Translations under genes and position numbers: made by a program
The notes under the pieces: generated by a model
Database searches by the model: none
Seen by the model: the letters and a program-made list of their open reading frames with translations, nothing else
Told to the model about the DNA's origin: nothing
Shown: positions 12,204 to 22,559 of the stretch, in pieces
How the letters are laid out: the number at the start of each line of letters is the position of its first letter
Numbering within the stretch: position 1 is the stretch's first letter
Assembly (NCBI GenBank): GCA_947632545.1
Contig: CANRPP010000004.1
Location: forward strand, 1-56,085
Length of the DNA: 56,085 nucleotides
DNA from: an uncultured Bacilli bacterium
GTDB lineage: Bacteria > Bacillota_I > Bacilli_A > RF39 > UBA660
Direction: 5' to 3'

Positions 12204-13391
12204 CTATAAATTACTATCTATATGTAGTTTAACTTCTTTTTTATATTCTTCAACTCCAGGTTGATTATAAGGATTAACTCCAAATAAATATGAAGAAAAT
12301 ACTGCAGATAACATAAAAAACATACTTAACATTCCTATATTTTCTATAGTTAATTTATCTAGACTAATTATAACACTTGGAGTATTTCCCTTTTTATGAG
12401 CTCTACAGACAGAATTAATAACTATATTATTTAATTCATTTAATGATGTATTATTAATTTTTAAATCATTATCTTTCTCTACTTTTATTACAGTTTCAAA
12501 TATTATATTATTTCCTTCTTGAATAAATTGACCTAATGAATGTAAATCTCTAGTATTTACTGTCGATACTGGAAAGATTCCTAAATTATTTTTACCTTCA
12601 CTTTCTCCAAATAGTTGTTTTATCCATTCTGTATAATAATATAAATTATCTTGATATACACTAAAATTTTCTATATATTTTTTCTTTTTAAATAATTCTA
12701 TACGATTAGATGCATAAATGTATGCCTTATCTATTAAATCAATACCTTTTTTATAACCAGCAATTAAATCTTTTATATTTATATTTGCTACTGCTAAAGG
12801 AAGAAGATGAGCTGCAGTTATTAGACTATATCTTCCTCCAATATCTGAAGGTATTTCAAAAGAAGTATAAGAATTATTTATGGCTTCTTCTCTTAATTTA
12901 CCATTTTCTTTATCAGTAGTTATAATAATCCTTGATTTTAATTCTTCATTACTATATTTTTTTTCTAATTCAGTCTTAATAATTTTATAAACTAAACTTA
13001 CCTCTAAAGTAGTTCCTGATTTACTTATAACATTTAAAGTTACATCTTTATCCTTAATATAATCAATAACTTCTAATAAATAATTAGTAGATAAATTAGT
13101 TCCTAAATAAATAAGTTCGGTATCTTTTTTCTTAAAATGATTCTTAAACATTTCAGATATAGCAAAACTACCCATAAAAGAACCACCTATTCCAATAACA
13201 ATTAATATATCACTATTTTCTTTAATTTTATTAGAAATATCTATAATTCTATTTACCTCATTATCATCAATTATATTATTTATAAAACCTGACATTTTAT
13301 CATTATATAATTTAGAAATAAGTTCTTCTTTTTTGTTTTTTAAAGTAGCAATATTAGTATCATTATAAGTATTAAAATCAAAACTAATCAT
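12204..13391 (-). CDS. pgi: Glucose-6-phosphate isomerase (short form)
   Basis: SIS/PGI motifs GIGGSFMGS, ISKSGTTLE, DIGGRYS and FGESEGK. The start overlaps the stop of the upstream giant gene by 8 nt. Confidence 0.82.
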   Translation of the reverse strand: MISFDFNTYNDTNIATLKNKKEELISKLYNDKMSGFINNIIDDNEVNRIIDISNKIKENSDILIVIGIGGSFMGSFAISEMFKNHFKKKDTELIYLGTNLSTNYLLEVIDYIKDKDVTLNVISKSGTTLEVSLVYKIIKTELEKKYSNEELKSRIIITTDKENGKLREEAINNSYTSFEIPSDIGGRYSLITAAHLLPLAVANINIKDLIAGYKKGIDLIDKAYIYASNRIELFKKKKYIENFSVYQDNLYYYTEWIKQLFGESEGKNNLGIFPVSTVNTRDLHSLGQFIQEGNNIIFETVIKVEKDNDLKINNTSLNELNNIVINSVCRAHKKGNTPSVIISLDKLTIENIGMLSMFFMLSAVFSSYLFGVNPYNQPGVEEYKKEVKLHIDSNL

Positions 13392-16300
13392 TATCTTTAC
13401 CTCTTTTTCTATATACTATAATATCGTAAGATTTCTTTTTATTATCTAATTTAATTATATTAGGACTTTTATTTTCTTTACCATCTATTATAATTTTATT
13501 TTTACTATCTAAAATAACCTTAATATTATAAGTAGTATCTAAATATTTATAAGTAATTTCATAATTTTTCCATTCTCTAGGAACATGAGGTTCAATATAT
13601 AATTTATCACCACGTTTTTTTAAACCAATAATCTCTTCAATACCTACTCGATAAAACCAGCCAGAAGAACCTGTATACCAAGTCCAACCACCTCTACCTT
13701 CATATCCTACTTTTGAATAGATATCAGCAGCAATTACATAAGGTTCTACTTTATATGTATCAATAGATTTTTTATCTAGGCTTCTATTAATTGGGTTAAT
13801 CATTTGATAATATTTATAGGCTCTATCACTATAACCACTTTTAATTAAAGCCATTATGTACCATGCAGTAGCATGAGTATATTGTCCCCCATTTTCACGA
13901 ATACCTTTAGGATAACTCATAATATAACCAGGTGTGTTTAATGATTTTTCAAACGGAGGATCAAGTAATTTTATAATTCTAAAGTCCTTATTAACAAGTC
14001 GTTCTTCAACAGAGTTAATAACACTAGGTATTCTAGACTTTTCTATAACATCACTCAAAATAGAAAAACTTTGAGAGATCAAATCTATCTTACATTCGTC
14101 ATTTTCTATACTACCTAATTTATCACCATTATCAAAATAAGCACGTAAGTAATAATCTTTATCCCATCCATATTTATTTAAATTTTCTTTTAGTTTTTCA
14201 TTAAAACTTATATAAGAATCTTTCTTAATATCTGGATAATATTTATCTAATAGTTTAATAAAGTTATTTATAATATCATATAAGAAAAATCCTAACCAAA
14301 CACTTTCTCCTTTTCCTTTAATTCCAACTTTATTCATACCATCATTCCAGTCACCACCACCCATTAATGGTAATCCATGACTTCCAATATTACTCATTGC
14401 TAATTTTAAAGATAAAAGTAAATGGAAAAATAAAGGTTTAGTATAAGCACTATATGTAAAAATAACTCCTCTTTCATTTTCATGTTCAGATAAACTATCA
14501 CCTACAACAAAAGGAACTTCTTCATCTAAAATAGATTTATCATCAGTAACTTCTAAATAATAAATAGTTGCATAAACTAACCATAAATAATCATCCTTAA
14601 AACGACTACGAATACCAAAATGATTTTTGCTATGCCACCAATGAAGTACATCTCCTTCTATAAATTGATGTTTAGCATTTATTAAAATTTGATTTCTAGT
14701 ATAATCTTTATTTACAACACAAATATTCATAGAATCTTGTAACTGATCACGATAGCCAAAAGCACCACTAACTTGATAAAATCCTGCTTTGGCTTGAATT
14801 CTAGAAGATATAGTTTGATATAAATACCAACCATTTAACATATAATCAAATGCTAAATCTGGAGTTTTAACTTTAACAGTTGATAATCTATCACTCCAAG
14901 AGTTAATAACTAATTTTAATTCACCTTTAGCAGTAGTTAAATTATTATACTTCTCTATTAAAGATAAATTTTTATCTATTTCTTTACTACATCCTAAAGT
15001 AAATACAATTTCTTTTTCACTATTTGCATCTAAATCAATACATACATTAATATCTTTAACTAATATTTTATCAATAGTTGCAGAATTAATTTTTTCTGAT
15101 GAAGACATAAATACATTAACATCACTATAATCAATACTATAAACATTACGAAGTTTTAAGTAATTATCATCACCCATAAATTCAGTTAAAATATGACGAG
15201 AAGTTTTCTCTTCAAAATTACCAAAAGTAGGATTTATAAAGAATGATATATCTAATTTTTTATTAATAGCTTCTTTGTTAGTTAATTTTAATATATATAT
15301 TTTTACATTATCTTCTAAAGCTACAAATTCAGTTAAAGAATGATGTAGTTCTTTAGTTTCACTTTCTAAAATAGAATAACCAAAACCATGTCTACATTTA
15401 GTAGGTTCAAATAATTTATCATTTATCTTAATACCTTCAGATTTATCATTTATAACCATTTCATTTGTCCAAGATGTTATTTTAAATTCATAACTATTAT
15501 AAGCATAAGTATAACCACATCCATTATTAGTTATAATAGTACCAAAATTACCATTTGAAATAACATTACTCCATGGAGTTGGGGTATTCATATTTTTAAT
15601 GACATATTCCATACCTTTTTTACTAAAGCCACCATAACTATTATCAAATTTTAATCTATCTTTATAAACTACATTTAAATTAGCTTCTGTTTCTAATCTT
15701 TTATAATCATTTATTTTATTATTTTTTTGTAGTAAGTCTATCTCATCTTTTAAGGAATAATGACTCTTAACATTAAACATTAATCTAGGAACTATTTTTA
15801 ATAAAGACTTATCTTCTTCTGTAAGATTATTACTATCTATTACAGTAACTATTCCAGGTGTATTTCTAAAACTATTTACACTATAAATTCTATATAATTC
15901 ATTATCAATTTCTTTTCTAACTATTTTAGAAGAATAATCCTTTTCACTATTAACAATAATTATATCTACAAATATAGATTTATTTTTAAAGTATTCAAAT
16001 GCTTTTAATATATCATATACAAAAGGCATATCTAATACATCTTTTATATTTACTAGTATAATTGGTCTATCTCCACTGACACCAAATTTCCATAATCCAT
16101 TTTGAGCTAAAGCATTTTTTCTTAAATATTCCCTTCTTTTATCATTAACTGCTATTTTAGTTGTCTGATATAAATAATTTAACATTATATTATAAGTACG
16201 CATCTCTTCGCCAGTTAAATTCATATTTTTGGTATGAACAATATTCATAGCATTAGCCATCCTGAAGGCTTTTTTTATTGATAATCTATCACTATAAGTA

Positions 16301-19300
16301 TTAACCATTTCTAAAACCTGTTCCATACTTCTACCAAATCCACAGATAAAATATACTTCTTTTTTACTATTTGGAGCAATTTCTATTCTATTTCTAATAC
16401 TCATAACTGGCTCTAATGAAGTACCTACTGAATTTGTTAAATCACTATTTAATGCATTAGGATTAGTTGCAGTATTACCTCTTCCTATAAATTTAAATCT
16501 ATCTGTTTCATAACTATACTTATCAACAGGATTTTCAATAAGTAATCTATTAATCATATAAGTTTTAGTACCTGTTTCCCTATTTTTTCTAGTCATAATA
16601 AGAGAATTAGTTTCTTCTTCATATGAACTTTCTAAAAACATACTATTAAATACACGATGAGCAACATCATCAGTATTTTCACACAAAATAGGTTCTGTAT
16701 AAGTAGTCAATTCCAATACTTTAAAATCATCACTATCATTTGTAAATGTATATTTTCTAATTTCTGCATGATGACTTCTTGTAACAATTATTTCTGTTTT
16801 AGTAGTAATAAAACCATCTGTTCTTATATATTTAATTTTATCTGATGCAAAAACTACTTCATACTTATCTGGTTTTTCATTTATGGGAGCATAAGTATTA
16901 GACCAAATTTTGTTAGTTGCAATATCTTTAATATATAAAAACATACCATAATCTTGTTCAGTTATTTTACGATATCTATTTAATTGTAAAGTTCTATATC
17001 TAGAAAAACTATTACCTCTATCATTCATAAGTAGAGTATATTTTCTATTTGATAAAGCACTAACTTCTGGCATATCTGAAATATATGAGAATACTCTAAT
17101 ATCATTATGAATAACTTCTTTTTTATAATTATACTTTTTATATTTAGCTATTTTCATATCAATATCAGCTTTTACTTGAACTTTTTCTTTTAGTAAAATA
17201 TCAAATGATTTTACTTTAACATTACTATGAAAATATTCTTGAATAATATTATCTTTTAAATAATTTGTAATACCTATTAAACTCATACCTTGATGATGTG
17301 CATAGCAAGATCTTACAACTGCTTTCGTATCATAATCATAAGCATCATAAAATCCATACTTTGATAGCATATTTAATTGTTTTAATCTTTCTATATTTTG
17401 ATATACATCTTCTGGATATAAAGACATTATCATTAAAGATGAATAAGGAGAGATAACTATTTTCGTATTTTTATCTTCGCGAGCTTTAAGCGCAGGTACA
17501 GAAAAACTACTGTATTTATAATTTTCTGAATTATCTAATTCATCATATGCCGATTCACTTATTCCCCATGGTAGTTTTTTAGAAACTGATATGACATAAT
17601 CTTTTTGACAGAAATATGCAAAATTATATGATTCATCAAGCAAAGTGTTTTTATAATTTTTCATATAAAGAAGAGGCATATAATATTCAAAAGCAGTACC
17701 ACTCCATGAGATTAACCCTTTATGTTTTTTATAAGTAGTTAATGATTTATCTAGACAAAACCAATGTTTACTTGACACATCACCTTTACATATAGCAACA
17801 AAACTAGTAAGTCTAGATTCACTAGCAAACTTATTATAATTATAAACTGATAAAGCATGATCATCATCTGAATAACCAATACTAAATACATCTTTTTTAG
17901 TATATAACTTTTTAAAATTAGTATTAGCTATTAATTTATCACACAATTTAACTAAATTATCTTCATCATGTTTTTCTAAAAATTCACGCACTACAAATAA
18001 AGCTGCTATTAAATTACCTGAATCTATTGTAGATACAAATCTAGGACTTAATACTTTTTTAGTTTTAATATCATACCAATTATATAAATGACCATGCCAT
18101 TTTTCTAAAGAATCTATTGTGTTAATTATATTTTTTAAATATGCTATTGCATCCTTCAAAGTTATAAATTTAAGTTCATAAGCACAAATAACACTAGTTA
18201 GCGAATAACTAATATCAGTAGAAGAAGTTCTATAATCAAGCTTAACATCTCTATTTGTTTGATAATTATCAGGTACTAAATAATTATTTTCTATAGTTAA
18301 ATTCTCTTTAAAATAATTCCATGTTCTTCTAGCAATACCTAAAATATCTTTATTCTTTCTAGAATCTAATTTTTTATTATCATAATTAAAACTTTTACTA
18401 ACATAATACATATATAATGGCGCTACTAAAAAGATAATAGAAATAACTAAAGCATAATAATTTTTTAAGTAAATACCTACTCCAAATAAAATTACTGCTA
18501 TAAATATATTAAATTTAAAATTATTAATATAATTAAATAAACTAAATTTAGAATTATTTACAACATCTTCTGCAGTTGTCCAGTTAAGTAAATTTTTATG
18601 TGATATAAATAATCTATATAAAGATCTAAAAAAGGCATCCATATATAAATATGTATAATAAGGAATAGTTGAAAAAACAACAAGGCTTCTTATAATTAAA
18701 GATTTTCCACCAAAAGTTAAATTTTTATAATAAATTGTAGTTCTATCATTTTTTTTATAATAAAATTTGTTTTTTAAAAATACAATTATTGGAAAAGATA
18801 TAACTAAATATAAAAATATTAAAAATATTAATTTATGATTTGAAAAGAATATTGTAAATATAATTAGTAATAATAAAGCAGGAGATAAAAACATTCTAAT
18901 AATATTATCAAATATTTTAAATTTACCTAAAATATTTATAGGATTTTGTTCTTTAGTACCATCTTTTCTTTTAGTTTTAGGAAGTAAATATCCAATAATT
19001 TGGGTATCTCCTCTAGCCCATCTATGTTGTCTATTAGTATCATGTAAAAATTCTGATGGAAAGTCTTCTATAAATTCTATATCAGATACATATCCACATC
19101 TTAAATAATTTCCTTCTATTAAGTCATGAGATAATATTAAATTATCAGGAAATTTATCATATAAAATTTTATCAAAAACTTCTAAATCATATATACCTTT
19201 ACCAGCAAAACTTCCCTCAAAAAATAAATCTTGATTAATACTAGGTACTAAAATACTATAAGCATCAAAGCCCCCTATTCCAGCAAAAACTTGTGAATAT

Positions 19301-21048
19301 AATGATTTATTAGTTGATTCTATATCAATATTTAATCTTGGTTGCATAATTGAATAACCACTAATAACTTTAGTTTGAGCTTTATTTAAGACCGGAGCAT
19401 TTAAAGGATGTGCCATACACCCTATTAAATTTGGTAAAGAATTTAAAACTACTTCTGTATCTGTATCTATTGGAATAACATACTTTATCTTTTTATCAAA
19501 TAAGTGTAATGTATTAGCATTAAAATATTTTTCTTCATCTTTTTTAGTCATTTTTCCAAGTAGTAATCTATTAAATTGAAGTAAAGCTCCCCTTTTTCTT
19601 TCATAACCTAAATACTTATTTTCTTTTTCATTCCATATTCTTTTTCTATATATAAAATGAAAGATTTCTTTTTTATATTTTTTATTTAATTTATCAACAT
19701 AATCCAAACCAAATTCTTTTATTTTTTGATCTATAGGAAGAGTTTTTTTATCACTTTCTTTTATATCACCAAGTAATGTAAAATATAAATTATCACTCTT
19801 ATTTACAATATATAATGTTTCTAATTTATCAAACATTTTCTTAATTTTTTCAGTACTATTAATAATAGTAGGTATAACTACCATTGAAGATGCTGTATCA
19901 GGTATCTTTTTAGAATAATCCATTTTAGGTAATGGCTTAACTTTAATAAACAAACTAACTATTTGATTAATTATTTGTATACTTAATTGTAAAACAGGAA
20001 TAATTAATATCAAGAATCCAATAATTCTATTAGCTATAAAATATTTAGATAAATAATAACTAATAATAATACTAACACTAAAAATTGATAATATATAAAT
20101 TATCATCCTAATAGTATAATTTTTATTTTTAAATAAACTAAATCCAATATGAGTATCAGATATATTTATACTATCTAATAATTTTAAAACATAATCATGT
20201 TCACTAATATTTTTTTTCTTCGCAAATTTAGTAATTTTTTCCCTGTATAAAGTTTTAGTCTCAGCAGTCATATTATAATATATCTTATCTTCCATTAAAA
20301 GTTTTTCACACTTACTAATAGATTCAAATAAATCTTCTATATCATAGTCAACAAATTCCTTAATATTATTAAATATATTAGCAATTAATATATTAGTAGT
20401 AGCTCTTTTTTTATATTCATCATTTAAAACTTCTCTTATACTAATATTATTTTTTTCTAATAACAAATTATATTCTCTAAATAATAAATTAGTCCCTACA
20501 CCTAGTTTTTTTAATTGATTACTAATCTCAAAGATATAATTACTATCATGTATAATATCAATATTATTAACTTCAAAAACACCAACATCAGAAGTTGGAG
20601 GTAAATTATTAACTATTCTTTCTATTTCTTCTTTAGCGCATAATTCTTTATATGATTCCCTACATATTTCATTTAATTTAGATACATATATTAATAATAA
20701 TATTTCAGGTATTGATGAAATTTCTTTATATGAAAAATACATATTTTGTTTTTTCTGATATGCATTTATATCTTTTATAAAACTTTTATAATTTATATTG
20801 TATTCTGATTCTTCTACAATATTTTTAACTACTGCATAAATACTACTACATTTATTAAGTTTTTTACTAATACCTTTTCTATTTTCATAAATGCTTTTTT
20901 TATTTTCAACTATTAAATAATAATTGTCAATTAACCATTCATTAGTTATACCAACATATTTAAATTGTTTAGTCTTACTAACTAAGTTGTCGTAATACTC
21001 ATTTATATCAGTACAATCTAAAAAAAATTTCTTTAAGTATTTATGCAT
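13384..21048 (-). CDS. Cyclic beta-1,2-glucan synthase-like giant protein (N-terminal membrane GT domain, central alpha/alpha-barrel-like region, C-terminal GH94-like glucan phosphorylase domain)
   Basis: 2554-aa uninterrupted ORF with RBS AGGAGAG. A TM cluster is followed by a GT core from VVIPTIINS (about aa 390) to HRWARGDTQ (about aa 674-682, nt about 19003-19029), a QxxRW-like motif. A second TM cluster follows. The C-terminal part has GH94 signatures: GGGDWNDG (nt about 14340-14365), GGQYTHATAW and GRGGWTWYTGSSGW. Confidence 0.8.
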   Translation of the reverse strand: MHKYLKKFFLDCTDINEYYDNLVSKTKQFKYVGITNEWLIDNYYLIVENKKSIYENRKGISKKLNKCSSIYAVVKNIVEESEYNINYKSFIKDINAYQKKQNMYFSYKEISSIPEILLLIYVSKLNEICRESYKELCAKEEIERIVNNLPPTSDVGVFEVNNIDIIHDSNYIFEISNQLKKLGVGTNLLFREYNLLLEKNNISIREVLNDEYKKRATTNILIANIFNNIKEFVDYDIEDLFESISKCEKLLMEDKIYYNMTAETKTLYREKITKFAKKKNISEHDYVLKLLDSINISDTHIGFSLFKNKNYTIRMIIYILSIFSVSIIISYYLSKYFIANRIIGFLILIIPVLQLSIQIINQIVSLFIKVKPLPKMDYSKKIPDTASSMVVIPTIINSTEKIKKMFDKLETLYIVNKSDNLYFTLLGDIKESDKKTLPIDQKIKEFGLDYVDKLNKKYKKEIFHFIYRKRIWNEKENKYLGYERKRGALLQFNRLLLGKMTKKDEEKYFNANTLHLFDKKIKYVIPIDTDTEVVLNSLPNLIGCMAHPLNAPVLNKAQTKVISGYSIMQPRLNIDIESTNKSLYSQVFAGIGGFDAYSILVPSINQDLFFEGSFAGKGIYDLEVFDKILYDKFPDNLILSHDLIEGNYLRCGYVSDIEFIEDFPSEFLHDTNRQHRWARGDTQIIGYLLPKTKRKDGTKEQNPINILGKFKIFDNIIRMFLSPALLLLIIFTIFFSNHKLIFLIFLYLVISFPIIVFLKNKFYYKKNDRTTIYYKNLTFGGKSLIIRSLVVFSTIPYYTYLYMDAFFRSLYRLFISHKNLLNWTTAEDVVNNSKFSLFNYINNFKFNIFIAVILFGVGIYLKNYYALVISIIFLVAPLYMYYVSKSFNYDNKKLDSRKNKDILGIARRTWNYFKENLTIENNYLVPDNYQTNRDVKLDYRTSSTDISYSLTSVICAYELKFITLKDAIAYLKNIINTIDSLEKWHGHLYNWYDIKTKKVLSPRFVSTIDSGNLIAALFVVREFLEKHDEDNLVKLCDKLIANTNFKKLYTKKDVFSIGYSDDDHALSVYNYNKFASESRLTSFVAICKGDVSSKHWFCLDKSLTTYKKHKGLISWSGTAFEYYMPLLYMKNYKNTLLDESYNFAYFCQKDYVISVSKKLPWGISESAYDELDNSENYKYSSFSVPALKAREDKNTKIVISPYSSLMIMSLYPEDVYQNIERLKQLNMLSKYGFYDAYDYDTKAVVRSCYAHHQGMSLIGITNYLKDNIIQEYFHSNVKVKSFDILLKEKVQVKADIDMKIAKYKKYNYKKEVIHNDIRVFSYISDMPEVSALSNRKYTLLMNDRGNSFSRYRTLQLNRYRKITEQDYGMFLYIKDIATNKIWSNTYAPINEKPDKYEVVFASDKIKYIRTDGFITTKTEIIVTRSHHAEIRKYTFTNDSDDFKVLELTTYTEPILCENTDDVAHRVFNSMFLESSYEEETNSLIMTRKNRETGTKTYMINRLLIENPVDKYSYETDRFKFIGRGNTATNPNALNSDLTNSVGTSLEPVMSIRNRIEIAPNSKKEVYFICGFGRSMEQVLEMVNTYSDRLSIKKAFRMANAMNIVHTKNMNLTGEEMRTYNIMLNYLYQTTKIAVNDKRREYLRKNALAQNGLWKFGVSGDRPIILVNIKDVLDMPFVYDILKAFEYFKNKSIFVDIIIVNSEKDYSSKIVRKEIDNELYRIYSVNSFRNTPGIVTVIDSNNLTEEDKSLLKIVPRLMFNVKSHYSLKDEIDLLQKNNKINDYKRLETEANLNVVYKDRLKFDNSYGGFSKKGMEYVIKNMNTPTPWSNVISNGNFGTIITNNGCGYTYAYNSYEFKITSWTNEMVINDKSEGIKINDKLFEPTKCRHGFGYSILESETKELHHSLTEFVALEDNVKIYILKLTNKEAINKKLDISFFINPTFGNFEEKTSRHILTEFMGDDNYLKLRNVYSIDYSDVNVFMSSSEKINSATIDKILVKDINVCIDLDANSEKEIVFTLGCSKEIDKNLSLIEKYNNLTTAKGELKLVINSWSDRLSTVKVKTPDLAFDYMLNGWYLYQTISSRIQAKAGFYQVSGAFGYRDQLQDSMNICVVNKDYTRNQILINAKHQFIEGDVLHWWHSKNHFGIRSRFKDDYLWLVYATIYYLEVTDDKSILDEEVPFVVGDSLSEHENERGVIFTYSAYTKPLFFHLLLSLKLAMSNIGSHGLPLMGGGDWNDGMNKVGIKGKGESVWLGFFLYDIINNFIKLLDKYYPDIKKDSYISFNEKLKENLNKYGWDKDYYLRAYFDNGDKLGSIENDECKIDLISQSFSILSDVIEKSRIPSVINSVEERLVNKDFRIIKLLDPPFEKSLNTPGYIMSYPKGIRENGGQYTHATAWYIMALIKSGYSDRAYKYYQMINPINRSLDKKSIDTYKVEPYVIAADIYSKVGYEGRGGWTWYTGSSGWFYRVGIEEIIGLKKRGDKLYIEPHVPREWKNYEITYKYLDTTYNIKVILDSKNKIIIDGKENKSPNIIKLDNKKKSYDIIVYRKRGKDND

Positions 21049-21718: not shown

Positions 21719-21747
21719 TTGACAAATATCAAGTTCAATAGTATAAT
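21719..21747 (+). promoter_or_regulatory. Consensus sigma-A promoter for the 80-aa membrane protein gene
   Basis: Perfect TTGACA, 17-nt spacer, TATAAT. Confidence 0.75.
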
Positions 21748-21770: not shown

Positions 21771-22013
21771 ATGGATAAATTAAATAATACAAGAATTAGA
21801 AATTTAAAAATAGCTCGTGCAGCAACAACACTTGTAGCAGGTATAGGTGTAGGAGGAATTGGTTATACTCTAACAAGTTTAGGCGATAAACCATTTGAAT
21901 TTTTAACTATTGGTATTGCCTCTATTGCAACAGTAGGATATAATTCATATCTTACCTATAAAAATAATATAGAATTAAAAAATGAAAAGAATAAAACTAT
22001 GTGTAAAAAATAA
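21771..22013 (+). CDS. Small two-TM membrane protein, unknown function
   Basis: 80 aa. Strong RBS AAAGGGGGA 7 nt upstream. Two Gly/Ala-rich hydrophobic helices (AATTLVAGIGVGGIGYTL and FLTIGIASIATVGY). Confidence 0.65.
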   Translation: MDKLNNTRIRNLKIARAATTLVAGIGVGGIGYTLTSLGDKPFEFLTIGIASIATVGYNSYLTYKNNIELKNEKNKTMCKK

Positions 22014-22145: not shown

Positions 22146-22183
22146 GATTGATAAAAAACTTGAAAAATTCGAGTAAAGATAGA

Positions 22184-22212
22184 AAACGTACTTGATAAAA
22201 GTGCGTTTTTAT
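22184..22212 (+). terminator. Intrinsic terminator after tRNA-Lys(CUU)
   Basis: AAACGTACT/AGTGCGTTT stem (one G-U pair) followed by TTTTTAT. Confidence 0.55.
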
Positions 22213-22220
22213 GTTATGAT
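22192..22220 (+). promoter_or_regulatory. Putative promoter of the antitoxin-like sRNA
   Basis: TTGATA, 17-nt spacer, TATGAT with an extended -10 TG (TGTTATGAT). Confidence 0.5.
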
Positions 22221-22226
22221 GTATTT

Positions 22227-22340
22227 GTCAAGGAAACTTGCATAAAATAAAAAAGGAATACCTAATTTTGATGAGTTAGGTACTATTCCTAAATTTTTTT
22301 GAGATTAGTACCGACTTATACAGTTGGTACTATTTTTATT
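22227..22340 (+). ncRNA. Candidate antisense sRNA (type I antitoxin-like), convergent with the 30-aa peptide gene
   Basis: The predicted start lies downstream of the 22192-22220 promoter. Hairpin 1 (22254-22290) is followed by a T-run. Hairpin 2 (22307-22331) has a G-U pair on this strand but an A-C mismatch on the other, and is followed by ATTTTTATT. Hairpin 2 overlaps the last codons of the peptide ORF. There is no ORF with an RBS on this strand. Confidence 0.4.
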
Positions 22341-22408
22341 AGTATGATTAAAATCACAATAATAAGGAGTATTATGATAGAGCAAAGATATTTCTCTTGT
22401 TTTCTCAT
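22316..22408 (-). CDS. Unannotated 30-aa hydrophobic peptide MRKQEKYLCSIIILLIIVILIILIKIVPTV (type I toxin-like)
   Basis: ATG preceded by GGAGGTG at 7-nt spacing. A charged N-terminus is followed by a single TM helix. It has its own promoter and a structured 5' UTR with an anti-SD element. Too short for the supplied ORF track. Confidence 0.55.
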   Translation of the reverse strand: MRKQEKYLCSIIILLIIVILIILIKIVPTV

Positions 22409-22478
22409 AATTTCACCTCCTTCCACTTTTACAAGTAAAGGAGAATAGTACCTAAACTAATTAAGTATTCCTAAAATA

Positions 22479-22507
22479 ATTATATCAAACGTTTGTTTTT
22501 AACACAA
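22479..22507 (-). promoter_or_regulatory. Putative promoter of the 30-aa peptide mRNA
   Basis: Reverse strand: TTGTGT, 17-nt spacer, TATAAT with an extended -10 TG (TGATATAAT). Confidence 0.5.
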
Positions 22508-22559
22508 TAGATTTTATAAATAATTATGATAATTTAGAAAACGCAGTGAAGATAGTTTG

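Follow-up and report, generated by a model that had tools for sequence, protein, structure and literature searches.

The window analysed here is the whole stretch of 56,085 nucleotides (nt) from an uncultured Bacilli bacterium (contig CANRPP010000004.1, assembly GCA_947632545.1), with a G+C content of 23.6%. Within it, a 414-nt spacer with tRNA-Lys(CUU) on one side and an ATP-binding cassette (ABC) exporter gene on the other holds a compact cassette, in which a minus-strand transcription unit predicted to encode a hydrophobic peptide of 30 amino acids (aa) converges with a plus-strand unit predicted to yield a small non-coding RNA (sRNA). Judging from the sequence and its relatives, we consider it probable that this cassette is one copy of a previously undescribed type I toxin–antitoxin-like family with a 3′-overlapping antitoxin. 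The region is a functional unit and not a product of chance: the predicted mRNA and sRNA fold with z-scores of −7.5 and −5.9, respectively, and the unit is conserved in about 70 genomes. An earlier reading of the window by a model, referred to below as the original prediction, had already proposed a module of this kind, and its claims are taken up with the evidence that bears on them.

The host clade is made up of gut Bacilli that are uncultured and very rich in AT, with ‘Clostridium sp. CAG:594’ and Candidatus Onthousia as relatives, and no published report of such modules in this clade was found. The exporter beside the cassette is 89% identical to a protein from a metagenome-assembled genome (MAG) of ‘Clostridium sp. 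CAG:594’, and exact look-ups of the 30-aa peptide and the adjoining ABC protein matched no record. The module is not present at six loci around ABC homologues that are 81–89% identical, so it is not tied to the ABC gene, and synteny with this gene was dropped as a guide to relatives. The window itself contains neither a second copy of the module or peptide nor a duplicated tRNA-Lys 3′ end of the kind that marks an integrated element.

Conservation of the cassette

Relatives were collected by scanning one genome per GTDB species for the exact hairpin pattern GGAATACYTAAN{3,20}TTAGGTACTATTC, which matched 77 loci from about 71 assemblies. These assemblies are almost exclusively MAGs labelled ‘uncultured Bacilli’, obtained from the guts of rabbit, mouse, chicken and other hosts, and one is Candidatus Onthousia faecavium. 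Two module-bearing contigs (L041 and L062) are labelled as ‘uncultured Muribaculaceae’ MAGs (Bacteroidota), the rest all being Bacilli; these labels are more likely to reflect mis-binning than transfer. Comparison of the 340-nt module with the 77 loci by BLAST gave 60 near-full copies with 85–93% identity, and a MAFFT alignment that included 150-nt flanks shows high conservation from the −35 box of the toxin promoter (22507) to that of the sRNA promoter (22192), beyond which the flanks do not align. The original prediction had named the conservation of the open reading frame (ORF), the convergent promoter and the hairpin architecture in related genomes as a check on itself, and the whole unit is indeed kept in about 70 genomes. 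The loci were chosen by an exact match to one of the two large hairpins, and the near-invariance of these hairpins is partly an effect of this ascertainment. In searches against Rfam, covering the window region and 10 related loci, tRNAs alone reach the gathering score.

The predicted toxin mRNA

The toxin mRNA is predicted to span about 227 nt of the minus strand (22246–22472), both ends being predictions. Its promoter (22479–22507), recognized from the sequence and from conservation in the family, consists of a −35 box TTGTGT (22507–22502), a 17-nt spacer and an extended −10 box, TGATATAAT (22487–22479). In the family alignment, the TTG and TGnTATAAT columns are 82–98% conserved and the spacer is variable. 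The promoter escaped a simple promoter scan because TTGTGT fits TTGACA at only three of six positions; the sister subfamilies described below are preceded by the same promoter type. Upstream of the −35 box lies an A/T-rich, semi-conserved region (22508–22556, minus strand, ..ACTGCGTTTTCTAAATTATCATAATTATTTATAAAAT; 60–87% column conservation) that may be an UP element. In most copies, for example L018, L025, L034 and L061, an AT-rich inverted repeat, hairpin Z (ATATTGAnnnnTCAATAT), stands upstream of the toxin promoter, covaries among copies and is followed by GCAAGTGTGTTTTCTAAATTGTCATAATTTTTATAAAAT. It is missing from the window, where 22508–22556 retains the 3′ part alone, and it may act as an UP element, an operator or an insulator.

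The 5′-untranslated region (5′-UTR) begins with an element (22443–22472) that can form either a local hairpin (22471–22443, −5.3 kcal/mol) or the 5′ arm of a long-distance 5′–3′ pairing. It is followed by a stem-loop (22414–22444) in which an anti-Shine–Dalgarno (anti-SD) sequence, CUCCUU (22443–22438; CTCCTT in the DNA), would sequester the ribosome-binding site by pairing with the Shine–Dalgarno (SD) sequence AAGGAGGUG (22422–22414, also written AAGGAGGTG), with a stem energy of −12.0 kcal/mol. One pair of this stem is U-A in 50 copies, C-G in two and U·G in three, a compensatory pattern; the stem is present in every predicted state of the mRNA, and the other subfamilies carry an analogous CCUCC/GGAGG stem. 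The terminator (22248–22290) is the complement of hairpin 1 of the sRNA with a U-run and doubles as the 3′ arm of the 5′–3′ pairing. Its stem (22290–22254, −9.7 kcal/mol), followed by UUUUUUAUUUU, is nearly invariant, a conservation that is partly inflated because the hairpin itself was the search pattern.

The predicted mRNA has a minimum free energy (MFE) of −68.7 kcal/mol (z = −7.5 against dinucleotide shuffles), and its 5′ end is predicted to pair with its own terminator region. The hairpin in the 5′-UTR nearly repeats the 3′ hairpin (inverted repeats I6, 14 nt at 93%, and I7, 13 nt at 100%). The arms of the former are the perfect complement of both arms of the terminator, whereas each hairpin, when folded locally, requires a 3-nt bulge. 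The 5′–3′ pairing, which comprises 27–30 pairs in the MFE structure, brings the mRNA to −68.3 kcal/mol, against −53.2 kcal/mol with local hairpins alone, a gain of about 15 kcal/mol. Covariation within subfamily A could not serve as a judge between the two states, since about 96% of cells are paired under the local-hairpin and the 5′–3′ state alike, and the subfamilies were compared with one another in its place. An equivalent 5′–3′ pairing of 24–29 bp, made of other sequences, exists in subfamilies B, C and D (z = −7.1 for B), with GAGUGUCUACC pairing with GGUAGACAUUC in one subfamily and GAGUGCUUGCC with GGCAAGUACUC in another. That the closure is kept as an architecture while its sequence changes strongly supports it. 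As in type I systems, translation of the mRNA would thus be limited by its own structure, here in silico by the anti-SD/SD stem together with the 5′–3′ closure.

For this strand, the original prediction had described an extended −10 promoter, a 5′-UTR hairpin at 22471–22443, an anti-SD upstream of the SD, a terminator at 22254–22290 with a T-run and a near-copy relation between the 5′-UTR and 3′ hairpins. All of these are present, the promoter being conserved in the family, the anti-SD stem showing compensatory changes and the near-copy relation being borne out by the repeats I6 and I7. It had also suggested a dual pairing capacity, of which the 5′–3′ fold-back stands, with its gain of about 15 kcal/mol and its recurrence in the subfamilies, whereas pairing of the sRNA with the 5′-UTR proved weak (−26 kcal/mol), as described in the next section.

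The predicted antisense RNA

The putative antitoxin sRNA (about 112 nt, plus strand, 22227–22338, both ends again being predictions) is composed of a 5′ hairpin (22229–22240), an A-rich linker, hairpin 1 (22254–22290), hairpin 2 (22306–22332) and a U-run (22333–22337), and its predicted fold has an energy of −35.6 kcal/mol (z = −5.9 against dinucleotide shuffles). Its promoter (22192–22220, plus strand) comprises a −35 box TTGATA (22192–22197), a 17-nt spacer and an extended −10 box, TGTTATGAT (22212–22220); the promoter scan scores TTGATA-17-TATGAT at 10 of 12 matches plus the upstream TG. Across the family, TTG and TGnTATnAT are 89–98% conserved, compared with 41–75% for the spacer, and divergent copies without hairpin X, a structure over this promoter that is treated below, have a consensus TTGACA as their −35 box. 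The combination of conserved boxes and variable spacers at both promoters suggests that both strands are functional. Further support comes from the 5′ hairpin of 4 bp, which shows the compensatory series CAAG/CTTG, GAAG/CTTC and GAGA/TCTC; as this hairpin lies past the mRNA terminator, its constraint acts on the plus-strand RNA. An antisense RNA with its own promoter and terminator, a hallmark of type I systems, is thereby present in silico, as indicated by the conserved −10 box and the covarying 5′ hairpin.

Hairpin 2 is the only terminator-like site that the scan reported in the region, and it lies on the plus strand. One of its positions forms a G·U pair on this strand in 53 of 59 copies and A-U in the other six, the G·U corresponding to an A·C mismatch on the minus strand, so that hairpin 2 is fully paired on the plus strand only, with an invariant U-run behind it. 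Hairpin 1, read on the plus strand, is followed by about four U in most copies. This difference in the U-runs places the end of the sRNA most likely at hairpin 2 (giving about 112 nt) rather than at hairpin 1. The terminators would then be two nested convergent sites and not one shared bidirectional site, the mRNA ending at the complement of hairpin 1. The original prediction, which had proposed a convergent promoter at 22192–22220, is matched by conserved boxes and a variable spacer in the family, and its proposal that hairpin 2 overlaps the last codons and is more stable on the plus strand agrees with the G·U and A·C counts. Its estimate of an sRNA of 75–115 nt ending at hairpin 1 or 2 most likely holds for hairpin 2, not for hairpin 1 with its short U-run.

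The predicted overlap of the two RNAs (22246–22338) makes them perfectly complementary over a stretch of about 93 nt that takes in the last seven codons, and the resulting 93-bp 3′ duplex has an energy of −145.6 kcal/mol. Pairing between the sRNA and the 5′-UTR reaches −26 kcal/mol, is imperfect and covers neither the SD nor the start codon, which makes it unlikely as the main contact.

The peptide

The toxin ORF (22316–22408, minus strand) starts with an ATG at 22408, 7 nt past GGAGG, encodes the 30-aa peptide MRKQEKYLCSIIILLIIVILIILIKIVPTV and ends with a stop codon at 22318–22316. It is intact and in frame in 52 of 58 aligned copies. Neither premature stops nor lost ATGs occur in the 50 gapless copies, where 17.7 affected copies would be expected and the lowest number in 2000 simulations was 8; in these simulations the same number of substitutions was placed at random and the copies were treated as independent. 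Variant alleles number 19, 13 and 27 at codon positions 1, 2 and 3, the third position being the most variable, and 22 of 59 observed changes are synonymous (37%), compared with 62 of 270 possible single substitutions (23%); one copy carries an in-frame 3-nt deletion. On these sequence comparisons, the ORF is under selection to remain open.

The peptide follows the conserved pattern M[RK]K[QST]EKYLC[STA]IIILLIIVILIILIKIVPTV, has a basic N-terminus (MRKQEK) and reaches a 19-residue Kyte–Doolittle mean of 3.49; its sole proline is at position 28 and it contains no glycine. With 30 aa and a predicted transmembrane helix, it has the properties of the small hydrophobic peptides (<60 aa) of type I systems. 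Six peptide variants searched against Pfam, NCBIfam and PADLOC at E ≤ 10 matched no toxin family, giving insignificant matches to unrelated membrane segments. Among 1.84 billion representative proteins, five reach E ≤ 0.001, and all are mis-called, nameless ORFs of the same peptide family; a literature search found no paper with the peptide motifs. The near absence of these peptides from protein databases indicates that annotation pipelines overlook them. The original prediction was accurate both in describing a 30-aa ORF with a charged N-terminus and a single transmembrane helix, which the family holds open, and in seeing no likeness to any nameable family, as no profile of Pfam, NCBIfam or PADLOC matches.

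Subfamilies, tandem arrays and decay

The 77 loci contain 97 occurrences of a plus-strand block of about 53 nt (U-run, −10 box, 5′ hairpin and A-rich linker), often arranged in tandem. Behind this shared block stand at least four different and unrelated hydrophobic peptides of 27–30 aa: the window type, MKTKTFILKVLKFITIILFLLIIMIVVIKK with MKKRPFIIKVLRLIAIILLLLTLLVIAIKI, MYKKDFLIFSLIIIIFLLIALLFTFVK with MNKKDFLILSLVILIFLLILLLFLVLI, and MKKKDLLISFLILIIILLIVSVMILCIKK. Every peptide type has its own anti-SD/SD stem, its own hairpin after the stop codon and its own 24–29-bp pairing between 5′ end and terminator. Tandem arrays of two to five cassettes mix toxin subfamilies behind the same antitoxin promoter block (L056:1382-4416, L069:3600-5950, L032:2312-4594, L028:2456-4311 and L075:1539-2865), and L075 contains two window-type modules about 1 kb apart.

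Lesions were found in nine of 58 copies, all on the peptide side (SD, start codon or ORF), with the plus-strand promoter and hairpins kept. They include short deletions within the SD (L055 and L025), loss of the whole SD (L053, L073 and L078), removal of the start region by a 14-nt deletion (two copies in L069), an SD point change with frameshifts (L012) and a late frameshift (L023). Such a one-sided pattern, taken from sequence and therefore indirect, would be expected if the peptide were harmful and the antisense RNA protective. At L066:1381-1700, directly behind tRNA-Thr(GGU), the −10 box of the sRNA is degraded (TATCCT) and the toxin ORF is intact, which may stem from faulty assembly or may hint that the antitoxin can be supplied by read-through from the tRNA.

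Association with tRNA genes

A tRNA or tmRNA gene lies 58–71 nt upstream of 28 of 93 cassettes, involving 13 tRNA species and tmRNA, and all 28 genes are co-oriented with the sRNA. The original prediction had suggested looking for multi-copy occurrence near tRNAs or prophages; the former was found, and viral contigs gave no match. Beside the 13 tRNA species and tmRNA, conservation starts immediately past CCA, in the 3′ trailer, which in the window follows tRNA-Lys(CUU) at 22146–22185 (plus strand) and consists of GATTGATA, hairpin Y (22158–22174, ACUUG/CGAGU) and an A-rich linker. Hairpin Y covaries (ACTCG/CGAGT, ACTCA/TGAGT, ACTTAA/TTAAGT). The conserved trailer of tRNA operons in this clade, CCA-(G/A/T)AT(T/A)GATAnnAAACTCG...CGAGT (hairpin Y), was seen at window positions 22146–22185 and in the tRNA 3′ flanks of L001, L017, L018, L027, L028, L038 and L051. 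Behind it follows a U-run where there is no cassette, and AAAAATAGAAAA with hairpin X where a cassette is present. Because the trailer with hairpin Y and a U-run also ends cassette-free tRNA operons, it is a native tRNA terminator of the clade, onto which the cassettes have been joined.

Hairpin X (22186–22210, plus strand) has an 8-bp stem (ACGUACUU/AAGUGCGU) and a 5-nt loop between an A-run and a U-run, and it covers the −35 box and spacer of the sRNA promoter. Its folding energy lies between −11.4 and −13.6 kcal/mol in the window and in the majority of copies. Its stem varies with pairing kept (CGUAC/GUGCG, CAUAC/GUAUG, GCGAC/GUCGC and GAGAAC/GUUCUC), 9 of 11 pairs being changed on both sides; by its sequence and predicted fold, it looks like a terminator and insulator.

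Where no tRNA adjoins the cassette, the same trailer is present behind a short stub that ends in CCA. Two such stubs recur just upstream of the trailer, AAAAGTTGTCGTACTTCTTCCTTTAGGGCACCAG (L055, L056, L007, L036, L038, L065 and L083) and AAAAGTTTGAAATAACTTTCTTACTCGCACCAG (L082, L010, L011, L053, L049 and L032). Neither ARAGORN at a relaxed threshold nor Rfam called the stubs as tRNAs; mini-helices or the decayed 3′ ends of tRNAs are possible origins. At L017:3560-4600, a tRNA-Lys(CUU) with the Y terminator only is followed by a glutamine-amidotransferase-like gene, a CCA-ending stub, a second hairpin Y, hairpin X and the cassette, a layout that looks like the precursor from which recombination between the two Y copies would give that of the window. 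At L072:1-160, the CCA-ending stub is separated from hairpin X by four tandem repeats of about 22 nt (CGACTCGGGTTAAAATAACAAAA), which look like an expansion of the hairpin Y region.

The link to tRNA genes could result from recombination through the shared trailer, from targeted insertion or from a functional coupling to tRNA transcription. We advance only tentatively, and regard as unlikely, the specific proposal that the cassettes are built onto the tRNA 3′ trailer of the clade, at a constant distance of about 60 nt from CCA and always in the orientation of the antitoxin, either as a portable landing mode for a recombinase-less element of about 400 nt or so that tRNA read-through supplements the antitoxin. 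If spread were the reason, tRNA 3′ ends with their shared trailer–terminator would be a landing or recombination site for a cassette of about 400 nt without a recombinase of its own. If coupling were the reason, the drop in stable-RNA transcription during starvation would lessen the read-through from growth-rate-controlled tRNA promoters and release the toxin. So tight and oriented a link to tRNA and tmRNA 3′ ends is unusual, and it points to a new route of spread or to a toxin control tied to stable-RNA transcription.

Elsewhere in the window, two ends of tRNA clusters, tRNA-Ser (21180) and tRNA-Pro (133), do not have this trailer, and tRNA-Glu (21354) has a short Y-like terminator. A single ORF of 2554 aa (13384–21048, minus strand) lies directly past the neighbouring tRNA cluster. 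Immediately upstream of tRNA-Lys(CUU) is an 80-aa ORF with a predicted hydrophobic stretch (21771–22013, plus strand), preceded by a perfect TTGACA-17-TATAAT promoter (21719–21747).

Proposed mechanism and alternative explanations

In the mechanism that we propose, the minus strand would yield an mRNA of about 227 nt encoding a 30-aa peptide with a single transmembrane helix, with its SD locked in the anti-SD stem and its 5′ end paired with its own terminator region, closing the molecule. From the convergent promoter, the plus strand would give a non-coding RNA of about 112 nt that terminates at hairpin 2, within the final codons of the ORF. This sRNA would pair with the 3′ third of the mRNA, probably initiating loop to loop, and the long duplex would be cut by a double-strand RNase such as RNase III, holding the level of toxin mRNA low; such cleavage is suggested by the length of the perfect duplex and by analogy with txpA/RatA, bsrG/SR4 and bsrE/SR5. 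Any surviving mRNA would be kept untranslated by the anti-SD stem and the 5′–3′ closure. If the sRNA were lost or its synthesis reduced, the peptide would be made and inserted into the membrane, leading to cell arrest or death. At the outer edge, hairpin X would insulate the cassette from the neighbouring tRNA transcription unit.

The evidence for coding and for antisense architecture would fit equally well a gene for a harmless small membrane protein, such as a regulator or a subunit of a membrane complex, that is tuned by a cis-antisense RNA and has no role as a toxin or in addiction. Many small bacterial membrane proteins are not toxic (PMC10730256), and because the SD is sequestered in each predicted state, the gene may just be weakly expressed. 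We nevertheless judge this explanation improbable, because lesions have arisen repeatedly and independently on the peptide side only with the antisense side kept, because tandem arrays place four unrelated hydrophobic peptides behind one antisense cassette, and because three layers of repression (anti-SD stem, 5′–3′ closure and a 93-nt antisense overlap) are directed at a gene that has no fixed partner and stands in varying genomic contexts. The tRNA linkage raises another alternative, namely that the cassette is chiefly a repeat that goes with the tRNA trailer and has spread by recombination at tRNA 3′ ends, or else that it functions as a 3′ external transcribed spacer RNA, the ORF and the antisense relationship being secondary. 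The 28 of 93 cassettes that lie 58–71 nt from a co-oriented tRNA or tmRNA, the conservation from CCA onward, the CCA-ending stub and trailer of the tRNA-less copies and the role of hairpin Y as a general tRNA terminator of the clade would all agree with it. However, the ORF is selected to remain open, conservation extends to the SD, the start codon and the dedicated promoter, the tRNA transcript is parted from the sRNA by hairpin X and its U-run, and about two thirds of the cassettes are not beside a tRNA; mobility is, moreover, compatible with a toxin–antitoxin function, and we rate this alternative very improbable. At 23.6% G+C, Ile/Leu/Lys-rich ORFs and promoter-like hexamers are common, and the promoter scan found 16 promoter-like sites where 12.2 were expected, so it also has to be weighed whether a spurious AT-rich ORF has come together by chance with ordinary terminators, those of the ABC gene and of tRNA-Lys. 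Such a coincidence is hardly credible given the conservation of the whole unit in about 70 species and different contexts, an ORF kept open, fold z-scores of about −7 and ABC homologues in relatives that lack the module.

Several points weigh against a type I toxin–antitoxin family. The searches of Pfam, NCBIfam and PADLOC revealed no validated toxin to which the peptide is homologous. Every predicted state of the mRNA keeps the SD sequestered, leaving no predicted route to translation, and the −35 box of the sRNA lies inside the terminator-like hairpin X, which could weaken the promoter. The large hairpins show sparse covariation in subfamily A, where their near-invariance is partly due to ascertainment. 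The simulation of the ORF overstates independence, as the copies are related, and the direction of its result is clear all the same. Viral contigs gave no match to the hairpin pattern or the sRNA cassette, unlike many type I systems; on the same grounds, a prophage origin of the cassette is not supported.

With these points taken into account, a type I-like family remains our preferred explanation. It would be a new family with at least four toxin subfamilies, added from sequence and comparison alone.

Relation to known type I systems

The original prediction had likened the cassette to Fst/RNAII, TxpA/RatA and BsrG/SR4. This likeness holds for the architecture, given the conserved layout, and fails for homology, as no profile matches. 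In Bacillus subtilis, txpA/RatA, bsrG/SR4 and bsrE/SR5 rely on 3′-end pairing and on cleavage of the duplex by RNase III, and their SD sequences are held in 4–5 G-C pairs (PMC6562991). The cassette shares with these systems and with yonT/SR6 the 3′ overlap of convergent RNAs (predicted here at 22246–22338), an SD in a short G-C-rich stem, a small single-helix membrane peptide and a Firmicute host. It differs from txpA, bsrG, bsrE and yonT in lacking toxin sequence similarity (no profile match) and viral-contig matches and in not lying on prophage-like DNA. It also adds a 5′–3′ closure of the mRNA and a nested terminator for each RNA, its antitoxin promoter and 5′ stem-loop are common to several unrelated toxins, and it often stands right behind a tRNA gene.

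The par locus of Enterococcus faecalis (Fst; RNA I/RNA II) has in common with the cassette convergent transcription across terminator hairpins, an SD in an intramolecular stem-loop, a membrane peptide of about 30 aa and an additional similarity between the antitoxin and the 5′ region of the mRNA (PMC8309996). The Fst/Ldr family is marked by a conserved APxxxGxxx or PxxxGC helix motif (PMC8309996), whereas the peptide of the cassette has no such motif and no Pfam or NCBIfam match. The cassette is also without repeats of the DRa/DRb type that pair both 5′ ends,. In Fst/Ldr systems the RNAs pair first at their terminator loops and then at 5′ direct repeats spanning the start codon; in the cassette the terminator regions are complementary, and the sRNA–5′-UTR pairing (−26 kcal/mol) is imperfect and leaves the start codon uncovered. 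The absence of the Fst/Ldr motif, of any profile match and of any viral-contig match places the cassette outside the known toxin families.

In aapA1/IsoA1 of Helicobacter pylori, as in hok/Sok, the full-length toxin mRNA is closed 5′ to 3′, has its SD sequestered and is translationally inert. The cassette shares with aapA1/IsoA1 and with hok/Sok of plasmid R1 the closure of the mRNA, worth about 15 kcal/mol here and found in four subfamilies, and the sequestered SD. Their antitoxins, however, target the 5′ leader, whereas the antitoxin of the cassette overlaps the 3′ end of the mRNA, and their hosts are Proteobacteria and Campylobacterota, whereas that of the cassette belongs to the Bacilli. 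In Gram-negative bacteria, processing turns long inactive toxin mRNAs into active ones (PMC6562991).

As regards copy number and arrangement, the cassette resembles the Ibs/Sib and Ldr/Rdl loci of Escherichia coli in having tandem, multi-copy hydrophobic peptides with antisense RNAs, and there is no sequence similarity. These loci consist of tandem copies of genes for short and very hydrophobic peptides, each accompanied by its own antisense RNA, which in Sib/Ibs spans the whole ORF; we know of no link between them and tRNA genes. The cassette is a member of no known toxin family; it would work like the Bacillus 3′-overlap class, with a fold-back as in hok-type mRNAs. In the family, features otherwise found apart, in Gram-positive systems (3′ overlap and SD stem) or in Gram-negative ones (5′–3′ mRNA closure), would come together, in a modular design in which one cassette of antitoxin promoter and 5′ stem-loop serves different toxins.

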